From the NCBI GenBank assembly GCA_022797635.1, contig JAAWKZ010000005.1, positions 1 through 51,902 of the forward strand: a stretch of DNA of 51,902 nucleotides. The letters are read 5' to 3'. Position 1 is the first letter of the stretch, and each line of letters starts with the position of its first letter. Source of the stretch: Clostridia bacterium (GTDB lineage Bacteria; Bacillota; Clostridia; TANB77; CAG-508). Below are positions 24,278 to 51,902 of the stretch, one piece after another. The notes under the pieces were generated by a model, which was not told the origin of the DNA, ran no database searches, and was given only the letters and a program-made list of their open reading frames with translations. The position numbers and the translations under genes are program-made.

Positions 24278-25393
24278 TTAAAAATTTAATTTGTCATAAA
24301 CATATCTGTCCATTTTCTTAATAACTTTATAACTATTTCCCCTTTTCATATGGCCTCTCCAACTATAATAGGAATTCCATACTTGCTCTTTTGTCATTTT
24401 TCCTTCTTCTATCCACCTTTTAAAAGTTTTTATCTTTTTTCTCATTCTGGGAGTTGCATCTCTATTCATTTTCCTAATTACTTTTCCTGTTTGGGTACAA
24501 AAGAATTTTGTTTTCAAAAATTTAAAACCAGTAGCAAACTTTTGTATTTTAGTTTTCTTTTCATTTAGCATCAATCCTAGTTCAGCAACTTTCACTTTTA
24601 TTTTAGCTAATGTTTCTTTTGCTTCTTCTAAAGTTGCCGTAAAAAAGTAAAAATCATCCACATATCTTGCATAACATTTCACTCTTAACGTATCTTTGAT
24701 ATAATGGTCTAAGGGGGTTACAGCAATATTGGTATAAATCTGGGATGTATGGGCCCCAAGTCCAAAACTAGTATCACCATATAATTCCATACATAAATTA
24801 GCAACATGTCTAATCTTTTCATCATAAATACGTTTTTGGTGTTCTTTGTATACTACATAATGTGGTGCAGAATTGAAAAAGTCTTTAAAATCACAAGTAA
24901 CAATATAGCCATTTAAGCCATATTTTCTAAAGTGTCTTTGCATATGGCAATTCACTCTATCTAAGGTATGATCCATTCCTTTTCCTACTCTATTTGCTGC
25001 ATTATCATAAATAAATGTATTATCATAAATAGGAACAATTACATGGTCACATAAATCACGCTGAATAATTCTCTCACTTAACTTTTGTGCTTGAATTTTT
25101 CTTCTTTTTCCTCTTTCACAAACATAGAAAATATAGGGCTTTGAAAGCTTTAATTTATCTGTTTGTAAAGTTTCATAAATTTTATAAGTGGTAGAAATTC
25201 TTTTTTTAGCATAATTCTGTGTAGAAGCCTTCCATAATACATTTCTCATGCATTTTGTGCCAGCTTGATATAGATTTTCATAAGAAAATACTTCTTCAAA
25301 ACTACCACATGCTTCACTTTTCTTTCTTCTTTTTTCTTCCCTCATAGCTTTTCTTCTTTGGTATCTTAGTTCATGTCTTTCTTCACTTGTCAT
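24278..25393 (-). CDS. DGR reverse transcriptase
   Basis: GKRRKI, ERIIQR, DFKDFF, GAHTSQ (DGR-type SQ), LDHYIK, RYVDD and LNEKKT motifs; 371 aa, no maturase/HNH extension. Confidence 0.93.
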   Translation of the reverse strand: MTSEERHELRYQRRKAMREEKRRKKSEACGSFEEVFSYENLYQAGTKCMRNVLWKASTQNYAKKRISTTYKIYETLQTDKLKLSKPYIFYVCERGKRRKIQAQKLSERIIQRDLCDHVIVPIYDNTFIYDNAANRVGKGMDHTLDRVNCHMQRHFRKYGLNGYIVTCDFKDFFNSAPHYVVYKEHQKRIYDEKIRHVANLCMELYGDTSFGLGAHTSQIYTNIAVTPLDHYIKDTLRVKCYARYVDDFYFFTATLEEAKETLAKIKVKVAELGLMLNEKKTKIQKFATGFKFLKTKFFCTQTGKVIRKMNRDATPRMRKKIKTFKRWIEEGKMTKEQVWNSYYSWRGHMKRGNSYKVIKKMDRYVYDKLNF

Positions 25394-25403
25394 TTGTATG
25401 TTT

Positions 25404-25770
25404 AACCTCCGTACATTATAATTGCGAAGTAGAACTGACTATGAAATTGACACACTATAAAAATATGTCAACCATGCAAGCAGCGTCCAGTCATCTACAT
25501 CAAAGGTTCTTTTTGGTTTGTAATTACCACAAACTCAGGAACAAATTTCCCTTTCACAAAAGTTTTGATTCACTTTTTACAGTTACTATGTCTTACTTAT
25601 ATCTTGTGAAATCCAGGCGCAACGCCACCAGTGTTGCTCGCGTTGTTATTGTTGTTAGTGTTACCGTTGCTGTTGACATTGCAGAAGTTGTTGCTGTTGT
25701 TGTAATTAGGTGAACGAAGCCACCACCAGTTCGTACTGCCTGACAACGTAATTATCGAAATTTGACCTAT
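25404..25770 (-). ncRNA. DGR template cassette 7 (TR7 25609-25743)
   Basis: TR reads SGSTNWWWLRSPNYNNSNNFCNVNSNGNTNNNNNASNTGGVAPGF; spacer end contains the RT Shine-Dalgarno. Confidence 0.88.
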
Positions 25771-25853
25771 ACTTCCTTATATTTTTCTTAATAACCTTGA
25801 TTACAGAATTTTATTTTTTCCTAATTAAACACATAATTGACATATTAATTTTT

Positions 25854-26217
25854 AACCTTTGTACATATTTAATGCAAAGCAGAACTGGCTATGAAATTGA
25901 CATTCACTAAGAACTTATCAACCATGCAAATAGCGTCCAGCCATCTACATCAAAGGTTCTTTTCGGTTTGTGGTAACCACAAACTCAGGAACAGATCTCC
26001 CTTTCACAAAAGTTTTGCTTCACTTTTTACAGTTACTATGTCTCACTTATATCTTGTGAAATCCAGGCGCAACGCCATTGTTATTGCTCGCGTTGTTCCA
26101 GTCTGAAGCACCGTTGTTGTTGACATTGCAGAAGTTGCTGCTGTTGTTGTAATTAGGTGAACGAAGCCACCACCAGTTCGTACTGCCTGACAACGTAATT
26201 ATCGAGATTTGACCTAT
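25854..26217 (-). ncRNA. DGR template cassette 6 (TR6 26059-26190, one codon shorter)
   Basis: SGSTNWWWLRSPNYNNSSNFCNVNNNGASDWNNASNNNGVAPGF plus conserved leader and spacer. Confidence 0.88.
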
Positions 26218-26278
26218 ATTGAAATTTTATACTATTTTGTTATAACTTTAATTTTTTATTTAACTTATTTATTTTTCA

Positions 26279-26637
26279 AACCTTTGTACACCATTTATAG
26301 TAGAACTGACTATGAAATTGACATATAAAAAATATGTCAACCATGCAAGCAGCGTCCAGTCATCTACATCAAAGGTTCTTTTCAGTTTATATTTACTATA
26401 AACTTAGGAACAAATCTCCCTTTCACAAAAGTTTTGCTTCACCTTTTATTGGTTACTATGTCTTACTTATATCTTGTGAAATCCAGGCGCAACGCCATTG
26501 CTGTTGCTCGCGTTGTTATTGTTGCTGTTGCCGTTGCTGTCGATATTGCAGAAGTTGTTGCTGTTGTTGTAATTAGGTGAACGAAGCCACCACCAGTTCG
26601 TACTGCCTGACAACGTAATTATCGAGATTTGACCTAT
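26279..26637 (-). ncRNA. DGR template cassette 5 (TR5 26479-26610, one codon shorter)
   Basis: SGSTNWWWLRSPNYNNSNNFCNIDSNGNSNNNNASNSNGVAPGF. Confidence 0.88.
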
Positions 26638-26747
26638 ATTTCTTTAAAATCTCACTGTTTCTAGTCTCATACTGTCTTTCGATACTACTCATTATAAAAC
26701 TTTTCTATTTCCTTACTTAACATACATTTATTGGTATATTAATTTTC

Positions 26748-27115
26748 AACCTTTGTACATACTTAATGCAAAGCAGAACTGGCTATGAAATTGACATTCA
26801 CTAAGAACTTATCAACCATGCAAGCAGCGTCCAGCCATCTACATCAAAGGTTCTTTTCGGTTTGTATTTACTACAAACTCAGGAACAAATTTCCCTTTCA
26901 CAAAAGTTTTGATTCACCTTTTATTGGTTACTATGTCTTACTTATATCTTGTGAAATCCAGGCGCAACGCCATTGTTGTTGCTCGCGTTGTTCCAGTTGT
27001 CTGTGTTGCCGTTGCTGTTGACATTGCAGAAGTTGCTGCTGTTGTTGTAATTAGGTGAACGAAGCCACCAGTTGACCGTACTGCCTGACAACGTAATTAT
27101 CGAAATTTGACCTAT
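26748..27115 (-). ncRNA. DGR template cassette 4 (TR4 26954-27088)
   Basis: SGSTVNWWLRSPNYNNSSNFCNVNSNGNTDNWNNASNNNGVAPGF. Confidence 0.88.
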
Positions 27116-27200
27116 TCTATACATGTTCTAATTCTCTATAAACTTTAAAATAATATTTCATTTTATCCTATGCTTGACACATACTGATACTTTAATTTTT

Positions 27201-27560
27201 AACCCTTGTACACTATTTACAGTAGAACTGACTATGAAATTGACATAAAAAATATGCCAACCATGCAAGCAGCGTCCAGTCATCTACATCAAAGGTTCTT
27301 TTTGGTTTGTAATTTCTACAAACTCAGGAACAAATTTCCCTTTCACAAAAGTTTTGCTTCACCTTTTATTGGTTACTATGTCTTACTTATATCTTGTGAA
27401 ATCCAGGCGCAACGCCATTGTTGTTGCTCGCGTTGTTGCTGTTGTTAGTGTTACCGTTGTTGTTGACATTGCAGAAGTAGTTGCTGCCGTCGTAACCAGG
27501 TGAACGAAGCCACCACCAGTTCGTACTGCCTGACAACGTAATTATTAAAATTTGACCTAT
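27201..27560 (-). ncRNA. DGR template cassette 3 (TR3 27399-27533)
   Basis: SGSTNWWWLRSPGYDGSNYFCNVNNNGNTNNSNNASNNNGVAPGF. Confidence 0.88.
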
Positions 27561-27656
27561 ACTATTTTATATTTTTAAAACCTTAATGATAGAATTTTAC
27601 TTTATTTCCTTACTTAACATATATTGACATATTATTGAATATTAATATCTTCTTTT

Positions 27657-28010
27657 AACCTCTGTACGAAGTAGAACTGACTATGAAATTGACACATAAA
27701 AATATGTCAACCATGTAAACAGCGTCCAGCCATCTACATCAAAGGTTCTTTTTGGTTCGTAATTTCTACAAACTCAGGAACAAATTTCCCTTTCACAAAA
27801 GTTTTACTTCACCTTTTATAGGTTACTATGTCTTACTTATATCTTGTGAAATCCAGGCGCAGCGCCACTATGGTTGCTCGCACCGTCCGCGTTATCCGTG
27901 TCACCACTGCTGCCGACATAACAGAAGTAGTATCTGTCGCTGTAATAAGGTGAACGAAGCCACCACCAGAGCGTACTGCCTGACAACGCAATTATCAAAA
28001 TTTGACCTAT
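27657..28010 (-). ncRNA. DGR template cassette 2 (adenine-poor, VR-like core 27849-27983)
   Basis: SGSTLWWWLRSPYYSDRYYFCYVGSSGDTDNADGASNHSGAAPGF in intact leader/spacer flanks. Confidence 0.8.
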
Positions 28011-28107
28011 TCTATTTTATATTTTTAAAACCTTAATGATAGAATTTTACTTTATTTCCTTATTTAACATATATTGACATATTATTGAATATTAATATCT
28101 TAATTTT

Positions 28108-28465
28108 AACCTTTGTACTTTTTATAATAGAACTGGCTATGAAATTGACACATAAGATATGTCAACCATGCAAACAGCGTCCAGCCATCTACATCAAAGG
28201 TTCTTTTTGGTTCGTAATTTCTACAAACTCAGGAACAAATTTCCCTTTCACAAAAGTTTTGATTCACCTTTTATTGGTTACTATGTCTTACTTATATTTT
28301 GTGAAATCCAGGCGCAACACCATTGTTGTTGCTCGCGTTGTTGGCATTGTCTGTGTTGCCGCTGCTATTGACATTGCAGAAGTTGTTGCTGTTGTGGTAA
28401 TAAGGTGAACGAAGCCACCACCAGTGCGTACTGCCTGACAACGTAATTATCGAAATTTGACCTAT
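28108..28465 (-). ncRNA. DGR template cassette 1 (TR1 28304-28438), cognate template of the adjacent VR
   Basis: SGSTHWWWLRSPYYHNSNNFCNVNSSGNTDNANNASNNNGVAPGF; 12 of 13 mismatches to VR are at TR adenines. Confidence 0.92.
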
Positions 28466-28887
28466 AGTGTTTTAAATCTTTCAGCATCTGATTTCATGAT
28501 ACTTTTTAAAAGTCTCTGTTCTTCTGACAAAAGTCTTCCCCATTCCTGAAAAGCATACTCTTTCCATTCTTTATTTTCTTCTGGGTTCAGTTCTAATCTT
28601 GACTTCAATTCTGTCAATGGCAATTCCATATTTTCACAAGCAGCTAATGCTTGTTGAAAATGCATTTTACGATTTTGCGCATCTATTTTATTTTCTGGAA
28701 CAATATTATTGGCGATATTAGCCTCATAATATACTTTTCTTGCCAAACTACAAATATCTTTTGTCAAAAAGAATGTTAATCTTTTTGGAGATTTCAAGCA
28801 ATATGTCAAAGTATGCGCTGACAATTTCCTTGCATTCTCCAAAAATAAAGTTTTACTTTCATTTCTTTTACTTACATATACTGACAT
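28462..28887 (-). CDS. avd: DGR accessory variability determinant (Avd-like four-helix bundle)
   Basis: 141 aa, basic and helical, MSV..SKR.ES start; canonical position between target and TR; assignment largely positional. Confidence 0.8.
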   Translation of the reverse strand: MSVYVSKRNESKTLFLENARKLSAHTLTYCLKSPKRLTFFLTKDICSLARKVYYEANIANNIVPENKIDAQNRKMHFQQALAACENMELPLTELKSRLELNPEENKEWKEYAFQEWGRLLSEEQRLLKSIMKSDAERFKTL

Positions 28888-29009: not shown

Positions 29010-31829
29010 CTAGATGCAAAAGCCAGGCGCAACACCAAAGTAGTTGCTCGCGTGGTTGGCATAGACTGTGTTGCCGCTGCTATAGACATAGCAGAAGTAG
29101 CTGCTGTTGTGGTAATAAGGCGAACGAAGCCACCACCAGTACGTACTGCCTGAGGCATTGTACTTTTGACGTCCTGTGCTCGAACTGTTCCATGCGTCTG
29201 TTACTCCTTGGTAATATTTATACTGTGGTCCTTCTGATGTGATTGCATAGCCGTATGTTCCACTTCCATTATATCCGTTATTTACTACCTCGCTTGCTGC
29301 TAATAACCATAAGTAATCATTACATGTTGCTACACTACTTGCACTATTATATGTTCCAATGTACTTCTTCTTTACTTGTTTGATATATGCTTTATTACTT
29401 AGCTTGTCTTTTCCTTCTGCTCCATTTAAAAATGTTCTCATTGCTGTATTTGCCCAGCCTCCACTGTTTGTATTACTACTGTTCATTTGCTTATATGTGT
29501 TTCCTGTCATGAAATCTAAGAATTCAAAACTTATACTTGCCTTACTATGGTTTCCTCCATACACTCCACTATTTACTAAATCATCGTGTTTAAATCCTAA
29601 TACTCTTACTCTTCTTTCATCTGTACCATATCTTACTTTATAGATATCTCCTACTTTTATGGTTTTACTTGTTCCATTTACTGTCACCGTTGCTTGTGTT
29701 GAACTGCTTGTAACACTACTATTTGCAATAGCTTTTGCCATCTCATTTAGTTCATCCCATGATGCTGCTATTTGATCCACTGCTTTTACTGTTACACTAC
29801 ATGTTGCTGATTTATTACTTCCATCCGCTGTCTTTACTGTGATTGTTGCAGTTCCTGCTTTTACACCTGTTACTAAACCTGTATTGCTTACTGTTGCTAC
29901 TCCTGTATTGCTTGAACTCCATGTTACTGATTTATTTTTTGTACCTGCTGGTGTTACTGTTGCTGTCAATTGTGTTGTCTTTCCTTCATCCATTGAAGCT
30001 GTTGTTGGGCTTACTGTTATTCCTGTTGCCAATTGATTTACAGTTACTGCTCCTGACACTGTTTCTACCTTATTTCCTGCATTATCTACTGTTAATACAT
30101 GTAAATAATATGTTCCTGCCGTTGTTGTTGACCATGTAATACTTTGACTATTGCTACTGAATGTTCCTCCTGTATAGCTACTTGCATTTGTTCCTAGCCT
30201 TGTAGCACTTGTTGTGAATACCCATTTACACTCTGCTGCTTTTGGTCCACTTTCATTATCTTGATGTGTTACTGTTGCTGTAATATTTGCTCCTGTATTT
30301 GCACTTGTTGTTAAATTACTAATTGTTGCCTTTGGATCTACTCCATCTCTTATTGCTACATATGCTGAATCTCCAGCGTTTGTTCCATCGTATAGTCTTG
30401 CATATACACTGTCTCCATGGTTCAACTCTGATACAGTTGTAGTCTTTGTTCCTGCTGGAACTGTTGTCCATGTTCCACTGATTCCATTCTTTTGCCATTG
30501 AATCTGTAAATTTGTTGAAGTAGTTAGTGTAATACTTGCTTTTCCACTTGACCATGTTGGACTACTTGCTATAATACTTCCTGTTGTTAAGTCCGAACCA
30601 GCTCCACCTACTGTTCCTGTTTTAATTCCAGTTGATGTTCCAGCTCCTTCATTCTCTGCTTTATCTTTTGTTGTTACTTTTACATCATAATTTGTATTTT
30701 GTGTTAATCCTGTAAAAGTATAGCTTGCATTTGTTCCTGTATATTTTGCTGTACCATAACTACTGTCTGATGACTTTTTAATGAAGAAACTATAGCTTGG
30801 ACTTGTTGCCATTCCCCATTCTGCATCTGTTGCTGATGCTGTTACTGTAATGCTATTTGTTGTTACACTTCCTTTAGCAACTGATACAATTGGTGCTCCT
30901 CCATCTCTAATTTCTACTGTTGCTACATCACCTTCATTTCTTCCATCTGTTGCTCTTGCATAAACTGTGTCGTTATGATTTAAGTTACCAATTGGTCCAT
31001 TATATGGTTGCCATGTTCCATCAATTCCATTAACTTGATATTCCAATTTAAATCTTGATTCTGCATCTTTTAACATTAATTCTATACTTGCTTTTCCAGC
31101 TGACCAAGTAGTTATTCCTTTTTGTTGAATTGTTCCATATCTTAATTCACCTGTTAATTCACTAATAACTGTCTCACTTGTTCCTTTTTTATTTTTTACA
31201 ACTACTTTTATATCATATATTTTGTCTGGGTCTAAATTAGTAAAGTCTGCAGTTAAATCTGTTGTATTTTGTTTTCCTGCCAACTCATGATAAGTTACCT
31301 CATCTGACTTTTTATAGTAATAGCTTAACTTTCCCTCTTCTAATCTTCTTACTGTTACTGCTACTGAAATACTATCGCTTGATTTAGTAGTTACTGTAAT
31401 TGATCCTACTTTTGGTGGTAGTTTGTCACCTTGTACCACTTCTCCTACTGAAATTTCTCCATCAGGTGTCACAATAATTTCTACTACACATCCATCTGTT
31501 GTATCTACTATATATACATCATTTTCTCCATCTTTATCTGGTCCTGTTACATCTTTATCACTCTCAATAATTCCTGCATCAATTAATTTATCCCAAAATT
31601 CATCTAGTCCAACATCTGGATTAGTTTGTTTTTGCATCCACCAATCCATAAGAGCAATCTCTATTTTTTCTCTTGCTTGTGCTGTTTGTGTCTTTTCCTT
31701 AGCTGCTACAGCTTTTTGAAATATACTATTATCTCCCATAACATAGTTAATAGTTATACCTGCTAAAATAAGTAAAACTACAATTGTAACTACTAATGCT
31801 ATTAAAGTAATACCTTTGTTTCTTTTCAT
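29010..31829 (-). CDS. DGR target: pilin-leader surface protein with FN3-like repeats, Big_2 Ig domain and C-terminal WWLRSP (DUF6273/CLec-like) variable domain
   Basis: MKRNKG-ITLIALVVTIVVLLILAG leader; FTGLTQNTNYDVKV (FN3); VTWSSSNTGVATV (Big_2); VR at the 3' end. Confidence 0.92.
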   Translation of the reverse strand: MKRNKGITLIALVVTIVVLLILAGITINYVMGDNSIFQKAVAAKEKTQTAQAREKIEIALMDWWMQKQTNPDVGLDEFWDKLIDAGIIESDKDVTGPDKDGENDVYIVDTTDGCVVEIIVTPDGEISVGEVVQGDKLPPKVGSITVTTKSSDSISVAVTVRRLEEGKLSYYYKKSDEVTYHELAGKQNTTDLTADFTNLDPDKIYDIKVVVKNKKGTSETVISELTGELRYGTIQQKGITTWSAGKASIELMLKDAESRFKLEYQVNGIDGTWQPYNGPIGNLNHNDTVYARATDGRNEGDVATVEIRDGGAPIVSVAKGSVTTNSITVTASATDAEWGMATSPSYSFFIKKSSDSSYGTAKYTGTNASYTFTGLTQNTNYDVKVTTKDKAENEGAGTSTGIKTGTVGGAGSDLTTGSIIASSPTWSSGKASITLTTSTNLQIQWQKNGISGTWTTVPAGTKTTTVSELNHGDSVYARLYDGTNAGDSAYVAIRDGVDPKATISNLTTSANTGANITATVTHQDNESGPKAAECKWVFTTSATRLGTNASSYTGGTFSSNSQSITWSTTTAGTYYLHVLTVDNAGNKVETVSGAVTVNQLATGITVSPTTASMDEGKTTQLTATVTPAGTKNKSVTWSSSNTGVATVSNTGLVTGVKAGTATITVKTADGSNKSATCSVTVKAVDQIAASWDELNEMAKAIANSSVTSSSTQATVTVNGTSKTIKVGDIYKVRYGTDERRVRVLGFKHDDLVNSGVYGGNHSKASISFEFLDFMTGNTYKQMNSSNTNSGGWANTAMRTFLNGAEGKDKLSNKAYIKQVKKKYIGTYNSASSVATCNDYLWLLAASEVVNNGYNGSGTYGYAITSEGPQYKYYQGVTDAWNSSSTGRQKYNASGSTYWWWLRSPYYHNSSYFCYVYSSGNTVYANHASNYFGVAPGFCI
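29019..29153 (-). repeat. DGR variable repeat (VR)
   Basis: Colinear 135-nt match to TR1; encodes SGSTYWWWLRSPYYHNSSYFCYVYSSGNTVYANHASNYFGVAPGF. Confidence 0.93.
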
Positions 31830-50746: not shown

Positions 50747-51902
50747 TTAGATACAAAATCCTGGGGCTACAGCACTACTATATCCTGCACTATTATGATG
50801 ACCAACACTGCCACTAGCATTAACATTACAGAAGTCATTTCCACTACTGTAATAAGGCGAACGAAGCCACCAACCATATGCACTTCCTCCTGTCTTCTTT
50901 GTACGTTCACTACTTAATGAGTTCCAGCTCGCTGATATTCCTTGGTAATATTTATACTGGCCTCCCTCTGTTGTAATTGCATATGCATAATATCCACTTT
51001 GATATCCACTATTTACTATTTCGCTTGCTGCTAATAACCATAAATAATCGTTACATGTTGTTACACTACTTGCACTATTATATGTTGCAATATATCTTTT
51101 CTTTACTTGTTTAATATAAGCTTTATTACTTAGTTTTTCCTTTCCGTCTGTTCCATTTAAGAATGTTCTCATAGCGGTTGAACCCCAACCACCAGAATTT
51201 GTGTGACTACTATTCATGTTCTTTTGCGTTGAGCCTGTCATGAAATCCAAAAACTCAAAACTAATACTTGCTTTTGTATGGCTTCCTCCATATATTCCTG
51301 TATTTACTAAATCATCATGTTTGAAACCTAATACTCTTACTTGTCTTTCTTCCCCATTGTATTTTACTTTATAGATTCCACCTACACTTATTTCATAACG
51401 TTCTCCATTTGCTGTATATCCTGTTGCTTTTGTTGAACTACTGTTAATGCTACTATCTTTTGCTATTGCTGTCGCTATTCTGTTCATTGTTGCCCAGCTT
51501 GCATCATCTGATCCTATTGTAACTGGTGTTGGATCTTGTACTGTTATGCTACAGGTTGCCGACTTATTACTTCCATCTGCCGTCTTCGCTGTAATTGTTA
51601 CATTTCCTGCTTTTACTCCTGTTACTACACCACTAGAGTTTACTGTTGCTACTCCTGTATTGCTACTTGTCCATGTTACTCCTTTATTTGATGCATTACT
51701 TGGTGTTACTGTTGCAGTTAATTGCTTTGTTTTCCCTTTTTCTACAGTTGTAGGTGTTGGACTTACTGTTATTCCTGTTGCTAATTGTCTTACTGTTACT
51801 GCCCCTGATACTGTTTCTAATGCATTTCCTGCATTATCTACACTTAATACATGTAAATAGTAGGTTCCTGGTGAACTCGCATTTAAATTTATCGTTTGTC
51901 CA
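50747..51902 (-). CDS. Paralog of the DGR target protein, 3' part (starts beyond the right edge)
   Basis: Frame open to the window end: ...GTYYLHVLSVDNAGN..., Big_2 domain, VRVLGFKHDDL, WWLRSP...VAPGFCI; closely parallels 29010..31829. Confidence 0.9.
   Translation of the reverse strand, partial: GQTINLNASSPGTYYLHVLSVDNAGNALETVSGAVTVRQLATGITVSPTPTTVEKGKTKQLTATVTPSNASNKGVTWTSSNTGVATVNSSGVVTGVKAGNVTITAKTADGSNKSATCSITVQDPTPVTIGSDDASWATMNRIATAIAKDSSINSSSTKATGYTANGERYEISVGGIYKVKYNGEERQVRVLGFKHDDLVNTGIYGGSHTKASISFEFLDFMTGSTQKNMNSSHTNSGGWGSTAMRTFLNGTDGKEKLSNKAYIKQVKKRYIATYNSASSVTTCNDYLWLLAASEIVNSGYQSGYYAYAITTEGGQYKYYQGISASWNSLSSERTKKTGGSAYGWWLRSPYYSSGNDFCNVNASGSVGHHNSAGYSSAVAPGFCI

Follow-up and report, generated by a model that had tools for sequence, protein, structure and literature searches.

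The DGR locus analyzed here carries seven tandem template (TR) cassettes, and the second of them, TR2, has the adenine-poor composition of a VR although it is housed in a genuine template cassette with a leader, a TR, an RT-2 spacer RNA, and a TR-type 3' flank. Our leading explanation, which we offer tentatively, is an old back-flow of adenine-mutagenized information into TR2 followed by silent drift; cassette 2 is probably little used as a donor at present. To our knowledge, DGRs have been described as strictly one-way systems, the template, invariant and adenine rich, serving to rewrite a variable gene. A natural TR with the signature of a product would bear on whether this direction leaks when homologous templates lie side by side, on the evolution of templates, and on whether broad and narrowed libraries can coexist in one array.

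The window, i.e., the whole 51,902-nt stretch of DNA that was analyzed (contig C31; GC content, 31.6%), belongs to a 1.02-Mb genome that comprises 37 contigs and is 80% complete. Sequencing runs containing this stretch are mostly labeled as mouse or mouse-gut metagenomes. The genes aspS and rlmN adjoin the DGR locus, which is therefore chromosomal. On the minus strand, the order is a target gene with its VR, an avd-like ORF, seven TR cassettes, and the reverse transcriptase (RT) gene. Each TR is followed by an RNA of the Rfam RT-2 family, and the units, of approximately 450 nt, are made up of a conserved leader (~26 nt), a TR (132 to 135 nt), a spacer, and a variable linker. The features are as follows:

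29010 to 31829, minus strand: DGR target gene, an ORF of 939 aa with Big_2, fn3-like, and C-terminal DUF6273 domains
29019 to 29153, minus strand: VR of the target gene (3' end), with TR1 as its template
28462 to 28887, minus strand: avd-like accessory ORF of 141 aa between the VR and TR1, named from its position only
25384 to 28438, minus strand: array of seven tandem units, each with a TR and a full RT-2 RNA, between the avd-like ORF and the RT gene
28304 to 28438, minus strand: TR1, adenine rich, 12 AAY codons, donor of the adjoining VR
28088 to 28295, minus strand: spacer RNA of cassette 1 (RF03077, 100.7 bits)
28012 to 28101, minus strand: linker between cassettes 1 and 2
27849 to 27983, minus strand: TR2, an adenine-poor, VR-like core with TR-type flanks (2 AAY codons, 27 adenines)
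27637 to 27840, minus strand: spacer RNA of cassette 2, intact (RF03077, 93.2 bits, the lowest of the seven)
27562 to 27651, minus strand: linker between cassettes 2 and 3
27399 to 27533, minus strand: TR3, 14 AAY codons
27181 to 27390, minus strand: spacer (RT-2) RNA of cassette 3 (RF03077, 105 to 118 bits for cassettes 3 to 7)
26954 to 27088, minus strand: TR4, 15 AAY codons, with its 5' 47 nt identical in the congener G047
26728 to 26945, minus strand: spacer (RT-2) RNA of cassette 4 (RF03077, bit range as for cassette 3)
26476 to 26610, minus strand: TR5, 15 AAY codons
26259 to 26470, minus strand: spacer (RT-2) RNA of cassette 5 (RF03077, same range)
26056 to 26190, minus strand: TR6, 14 AAY codons
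25834 to 26050, minus strand: spacer (RT-2) RNA of cassette 6 (RF03077, same range)
25609 to 25743, minus strand: TR7, 16 AAY codons, template of a VR on contig C28
25384 to 25600, minus strand: spacer (RT-2) RNA of cassette 7 (RF03077, same range)
24278 to 25393, minus strand: reverse transcriptase of 371 aa (Pfam RVT_1, 6.8e-15)

The target gene encodes a surface-type protein with Pfam matches to Big_2 (1.1e-19) and, at residues 780 to 939, to DUF6273 (3.6e-16). The avd-like ORF has no match in Pfam or NCBIfam, and its equivalent place is held in the related locus L013. As expected of a DGR-type RT, the RT translation contains YVDD and LGAHTSQ, the latter a motif that we take to be diagnostic for DGR RTs. 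The structured spacer RNA that characterizes a DGR between its TR and RT is present in all seven cassettes: every spacer matches RF03077 at 93 to 118 bits (gathering score, 40), and the spacers have a common fold with compensatory changes in 5 of 54 predicted pairs. In this consensus fold, spacer 2 has one broken pair and one G-U pair.

Two TR/VR pairs differ nearly only at TR adenines, as expected of a DGR. The window VR departs from TR1 at 12 of 40 adenines and at one non-adenine position, i.e., almost solely at adenines, and TR1 is therefore its template. A VR on contig C28 (C28:18877-19011) departs from TR7 at 18 of 43 adenines (11 A>G, 6 A>T, and 1 A>C) and at two non-adenine positions. 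Both active VRs carry the 3' sequence GGCTTT(T/A)G(C/T)ATCTAGG, and the 3' flank of the window VR is of the VR type (GGCTTTTGCATCTAG). No hairpin after the VRs was stronger than those in shuffled sequence. A further VR (C24:431-565; locus L012) fits best as a TR7-TR1-TR7 mosaic, with 4 non-adenine mismatches versus 7 for the best single TR; if this is true, different templates can rewrite parts of one VR. The VRs that are currently templated look to be only those on C31 and C28 and perhaps the one on C24. The window also contains a second DUF6273 paralog (approximately 50756 to 50890, minus strand), and 17 other VR-like sites occur in the genome (G000). The DUF6273 paralogs across the genome often lie ~1 kb or less from contig ends, and their VR-like ends have no clean match to the seven TRs (10 to 43 non-adenine mismatches).

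In-frame AAY codons number 12, 2, 14, 15, 15, 14, and 16 in TR1 to TR7, respectively, and 4 in the window VR, in agreement with the paucity of AAY codons that a first-pass annotation of this DNA had reported for TR2. The translation of TR2 reads ...YYSDRYYFCYVGSSGDTDNADG..., and the VR-like character attributed to it by the same annotation holds by composition. Its 27 adenines, 2 AAY codons, and library of 10^14.0 fall among the values of the tabulated VR-like sequences (22 to 28 adenines, 1 to 6 AAY codons, and libraries of 10^10.6 to 10^15.5), and the other six TRs have 39 to 43 adenines, 12 to 16 AAY codons, and libraries of 10^20.7 to 10^23.7. TR2 thus lacks the adenine-rich, AAY-rich variable part of a functional TR. 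A functional TR should also be free of stop-prone codons, whereas the AGA at positions 49 to 51 of TR2 can become TGA by adenine mutagenesis, a feature absent from the other 15 tabulated TR and VR sequences. With its 27 adenines, TR2 retains 21 mutable codons, corresponding to ~10^14 possible protein variants, which disagrees with its initial description as a low-mutability store of one variant. Its surroundings are those of a template: the leader, spacer, and 3' flank are intact and of the TR type, and the 3' end reads GGATTTCACAAGATA, as in all TRs, with no VR-type recipient element. Regarded as a VR, TR2 has the appropriate composition and distance from the template consensus; it has no target ORF and lies between a linker and leader upstream and a spacer RNA downstream.

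Of the 28 differences between TR1 and TR2 over 135 positions, 15 fall at TR1 adenines and 13 elsewhere, and 11 of these 13 are third codon positions, exactly as first counted. Over the full 135 nt, adenines are enriched among the differences (15/40 versus 13/95; Fisher p = 0.004), largely because the conserved ends hold few adenines. No enrichment is seen in the variable part (positions 37 to 122; 14/34 adenines versus 13/52 non-adenines; p = 0.15), which weakens the proposed adenine bias. The proposed codon-position bias is real as an excess at third positions, since non-adenine third positions in this part changed in 11 of 27 cases versus 2 of 25 for non-adenine first and second positions (p = 0.01). 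Adenines changed at the same rate as non-adenine third positions (14/34 versus 11/27; p = 1), which indicates that the sites left free by the encoded fold all changed to the same extent (~41%) and that the structural sites were conserved. Fresh DGR products look unlike TR2, with adenine-to-non-adenine ratios of 12:1 and 18:2. A coding-like pattern such as this cannot separate an origin as a VR from selection on a template, since selection reaches a TR by way of the proteins that it templates.

The changes were polarized by comparing each TR with the consensus of the other TRs (the seven of the array and that of L013), leaving out sites at which fewer than five of the seven others agreed (7 sites for TR2). 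TR2 has 15 private A>N changes, 1 N>A change, and 6 others, and the other six TRs pooled have 19, 5, and 7, respectively. In the proportion of A>N to other private changes, TR2 does not stand apart from the pooled TRs (15:7 versus 19:12; Fisher p = 0.77); in the length of its branch it does, by a factor of approximately four (22 private changes versus 4 to 7; Poisson p = 3e-8). The private adenine losses of TR2 run from AT to GC (10 A>G, 4 A>T, and 1 A>C), whereas at non-adenine sites the direction is from GC to AT for 6 of 7 private changes. Relative to the TR consensus, TR2 shows 19 A>N, 6 C>T, and 4 other changes, and resident coding VRs compared with their best TRs give 23, 6, and 4 (C9) and 19, 6, and 6 (C33) in the same classes. 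At positions 51, 63, 78, 90, 102, and 122, TR2 has bases found in no other TR, and the other TRs have no adenine there. Given these six private non-adenine bases, no present TR, alone or as part of a mosaic, was the donor of a clean event.

Under the back-flow explanation, the TR2 core would once have been rewritten by adenine-mutagenized information running in the reverse direction, either by array cDNA annealing or homing to the TR2 copy or by gene conversion from a VR. This rewriting would have removed ~40% of the TR2 adenines in one step; it would not have been recent, and its source would be no TR or VR now in the genome. The core would afterwards have gained silent GC-to-AT changes and one stop-prone codon, and it would have been too unlike its neighbors (no common run of >13 nt) for homogenization with them. 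Several observations favor such an event. The composition of TR2 falls within the range of the VRs and beyond that of the TRs, its adenine spectrum resembles that of a real product (the C28 VR versus TR7), the fraction of adenines changed (14/34, or ~40%) is the size of one mutagenic event, and its distance to the TR consensus equals that of the resident VRs to their best TRs. In addition, drift alone should not create G in an AT-rich window with a preference for T-ending codons. The dominance of A>G was considered as an argument against DGR activity and was rejected, the spectrum of the C28 VR being alike and about half of replaced adenines becoming G in a published survey (PMC6642488). Repeated self-homing as the sole cause was also rejected: at the non-adenine rate of that survey, the rounds needed for 6 to 9 non-adenine errors would strip nearly all adenines, and ~60% remain.

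Other observations weigh against back-flow. Adenines and non-adenine third positions changed equally often, and the other TRs show the same mix of changes, so that a longer branch suffices without any excess specific to adenines. Fresh products of this DGR carry 1 or 2 non-adenine changes, and TR2 has 6 that the present TRs leave unexplained. The 3' flank of TR2 is of the TR type, without a VR-type element, and in the Bordetella phage it is the 3' element that determines which way transfer runs (PMC3240598). A donor VR is absent from everything searched. A close rival, which we rank only just second, dispenses with reverse flow: cassette 2 would be an old paralog whose core escaped the homogenization or selection that keeps templates adenine rich and diverged in place by point mutation at fold-free sites (AAY adenines and third positions), either because selection for mutability was relaxed or because a narrower, focused library was selected for. 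The equal rates at adenines and non-adenine third positions, the conservation of structural positions, and a mix of changes that differs from those of other TR branches only in the number of changes all agree with divergence in place, as does the lack of long common runs in TR2, which gene conversion would consequently skip. However, this alternative calls for 10 A>G changes in the face of strong AT pressure and must explain how adenines were lost with the structural codons, spacer RNA, and leader intact. The stop-prone AGA also argues against current selection of TR2 as a mutagenic template.

Comparisons with relatives bear on the age of the array. A genus-wide DNA search of 51 genomes gave matches in three, including the window's own genome. 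The G047 contig begins inside the array and contains a spacer, a linker, a truncated TR, a second spacer, and the RT gene; 47 nt of the truncated TR equal TR4, and the RT region is 94% identical. The presence of an array with a TR4-type end in G047 implies that at least part of the array predates these species, and this age, together with the divergence of most linker pairs (49 to 82% identical), favors divergence in place. The shared cassette motif was found in one species-representative genome (locus L013 of G064), in one metagenome contig (L014; 76% identical), and in no viral contig. L013, which is 94.6% identical to the window over 1,613 nt of the RT gene and cassette 7, and L014 each have, as assembled, a single TR and a single spacer RNA copy and thus offer no ortholog of cassette 2. 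For the VR beside avd in L013 (2169 to 2300, minus strand), TR7 is the best of the seven window TRs (79%), and this VR has, by eye, many non-adenine differences from its own adjacent TR, a hint that the L013 array was collapsed in assembly.

Four of the 24 sequencing runs listed (X1, X2, X4, and X6), which are stored as contigs and not as reads, were compared with the window. In X1, a run that differs in sequence from the window and may still be related to its source sample, a 270-nt contig spans 27832 to 28101 with a single difference, a T>C change at 28063 in the linker. The TR2 core is therefore real, lies within TR-type flanks, and is unchanged in X1. The constancy of the core elsewhere, which the first-pass annotation had raised, thus extends to one other mouse-gut run, and it fits divergence in place. 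In X2, depths over the TR2 bins were 0 and 4.5, versus ~15 to 160 in neighboring array bins; this uncovered sequence may reflect a different core in that strain or nothing, and it carries no weight. X4 differs from the window at 12 positions, of which 8 are in TR cores (25726 to 25728, 27520 to 27521, and 28319 to 28329). On the sense strand, these are 110 A>G, 115 A>T, and 120 T>C in TR1, A>G at positions 13 and 14 in TR3, and TGG>CAC at positions 16 to 18 in TR7. Four of the eight (in TR1 and TR3) are at sense adenines, a hint of present-day adenine loss from TRs that favors back-flow, although the contigs concerned are of low depth (3.4 to 7.9). In X1, X2, and X6, three independent runs, contigs break off at the VR edge (29033 to 29037), which would be expected of a VR that is heterogeneous in the populations sampled. 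The loose ends of these contigs were considered as copies of TR2, and this was rejected, since by eye they match the paralogous VR at C19:581.

We searched for a donor or progeny of TR2. BLAST located 18 VR-like sites outside the array in the genome, and TR2, taken as the donor, mismatches each of them at 20 or more non-adenine positions. When mosaics were sought for 19 VR-like sites (these 18 and the window VR), none of the best paths used TR2. The variable part of TR2 has no exact run of >13 nt in common with the rest of the genome, and TR1, TR3, and TR7 have runs of up to 28 to 30 nt in common with other cassettes. TR2 was never the best-matching TR at the full-length VR/TR loci from G047 or G064. 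Two A-to-N patterns of the TR2 core had no match in species-representative genomes, and in the window and its genome, TR2 itself was the sole match. Of 290 matches to DUF6273 homologs, the 120 listed were examined, and none of these 120 was compatible with TR2, the minimum of 10 incompatible residues belonging to the window VR. Among the same 120, TR5, TR1, TR3, and TR7 have VRs with 0 or 1 incompatible residues, and the minima for TR4 and TR6 are 3 and 4, respectively. The best identity to the 29 variable residues of TR2 was 16/29, again in the window's own VR. The 45-aa TR2 peptide, a short query with little power except for near-identical VRs, gave 11 candidates among 5.8 billion proteins (longer lengths), none at E <= 0.001, and an antisense ORF over TR2 (27752 to 28036) used as a query for other assemblies of the core gave no candidate. 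No cognate VR differing only at TR2 adenines was found in the genome, which is 80% complete. The coding VR nearly identical to TR2 that had been predicted was thus not found in the genome, the two congeners, the species-representative genomes, or the 120 listed homologs, and the proposed use of TR2 as a donor has no counterpart among the 19 VR-like sites or these homologs. This result also counts against divergence in place under selection, since a selected template should have progeny and no TR2-compatible VR occurs in the data searched.

If mutagenized information can flow back into the array, TR2 might even be a naturally "locked-in" template, in which a successful binding site was written back and which now offers a focused library of ~10^14. 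We consider this doubtful; if it were true, TR2 would be a heritable record of past selection within a hypermutation system.

The linkers on either side of cassette 2 led to the original interpretation, in which cassette 1 was recently duplicated and a target-gene VR overwrote the core of the copy, now a low-mutability "memory" donor of one variant. The linkers indeed match at 89 of 90 positions (27562 to 27651 versus 28012 to 28101, the mismatch being 27613 versus 28063), whereas other linker pairs are 49 to 82% identical; the T>C change of X1 at 28063 makes the two linkers identical at that site. A 17-nt linker insertion is common to cassettes 1 and 2 alone, TR1 and TR2 have common states at positions 13, 37, 77, 94, and 95, and the VR-like composition of TR2 is also in keeping with a capture. 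Nevertheless, the near-identity is confined to a tract of ~100 nt (27547 to 27651 versus 27997 to 28101, with 2 mismatches). Between cassettes 1 and 2, differences number 2/22 in the leader, 28/135 in the core, 8/179 in the spacer, 4/18 plus 6 gap columns in the stretch after the spacer, and 2/93 in the linker. Spacer 2 is close to spacer 1, as had been noted (171/179), but not specially so, since spacers 2 and 3 also match at 171/179. Local near-identity beside an ordinarily diverged spacer argues against a recent birth of the whole cassette, and under the back-flow explanation, the near-identical linkers would result from a separate, recent, local duplication or conversion. Moreover, a freshly captured VR would bear the non-adenine bases of a present TR, whereas TR2 has 6 private ones; no VR resembling it was found (16/29 residues at best), none of the 19 genomic VR-like sites or 120 listed homologs fits TR2 as the donor, and TR2 would still yield ~10^14 variants. 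The recent duplication followed by overwriting is therefore not supported, and we regard capture of this kind as quite unlikely. A promoter scan of the linkers gave 26 sites versus 13.7 expected in AT-rich DNA and was uninformative.

An assembly artifact, with the VR of a paralogous target gene misplaced into the array, is hardly credible: the array is a 450-nt tandem repeat at which related assemblies break or collapse (as at the start of the G047 contig), and the assembly has 37 contigs and is 80% complete, but in the X1 contig (27832 to 28101) the TR2 core is continuous with the TR-type 3' flank and the linker, the private TR2 bases at positions 14 and 122 lie <=31 nt from cassette-specific flank bases, and no paralogous VR is like the core.

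The locus resembles that of Bordetella phage BPP-1 (TR, IMH/IMH*, avd, and brt) in having an RT and a small accessory ORF, a TR and VR that differ almost only at adenines (here 12 of 13 differences), a VR at the 3' end of a surface-type protein gene, and divergence of the TR and VR just past a common GC-rich 3' end. It differs in that BPP-1 has one TR, whereas seven tandem TR-plus-spacer cassettes are present here, one of them adenine poor. The recipient in the Bordetella phage requires a 3' IMH element, which sets the direction of transfer (PMC3240598); transfer as described there is one-way, whereas here a TR carries an apparent product of transfer.

In a survey (PMC6642488), 79.9% of the DGRs with several VRs hold a single TR and the rest hold more, one example having two TRs and six VRs. 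The same source gives means of 15 A-to-N and 1.5 other substitutions per TR-VR pair, with about half of the replaced adenines becoming G. As in its multi-TR DGRs, different VRs match different TRs in our genome (the window VR with TR1 and the C28 VR with TR7); unlike here, the available part of that text describes no tandem TR-plus-spacer array or adenine-poor TR. Neither was found in our literature search, the scope of which excluded supplements and most subscription journals.

A study of a synthetic Escherichia coli DGR with recombineering-based homing reports "continuously erasing adenine from TR" (bioRxiv 10.64898/2026.07.21.739853). As in TR2, the TR itself is mutated and adenines are lost, which offers a precedent for back-flow. 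That system is engineered with CspRecT and a MutL mutant, whereas TR2 is natural and has a TR-type flank, and the non-adenine changes of TR2 exceed the yield of one or a few such events. Since engineered DGRs suffer erasure of TR adenines, a natural case and its usual prevention are of practical interest. If TR2 is only an old drifting paralog, it would be an ordinary by-product of an unusual array.

All seven spacers agree with the RT-2 RNA of Rfam (RF03077), with covarying pairs; seven copies are present here, one per template, versus one in L013 and L014 as assembled. In the pilS/pilE and vls systems, silent cassettes of fixed sequence bring about antigenic variation by gene conversion. The present array likewise consists of non-expressed donor cassettes beside the expressed gene that they rewrite, but it acts by reverse transcription with adenine mutagenesis, and our searches gave no sign of TR2 serving as a fixed donor like a silent cassette. 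Finally, C-ending codons (AAC, AGC, and GGC) predominate in the TRs and VRs, whereas five ORFs of the window contain 131 AAT codons versus 16 AAC codons; something maintains C-ending codons in the TR/VR system against the genome bias.
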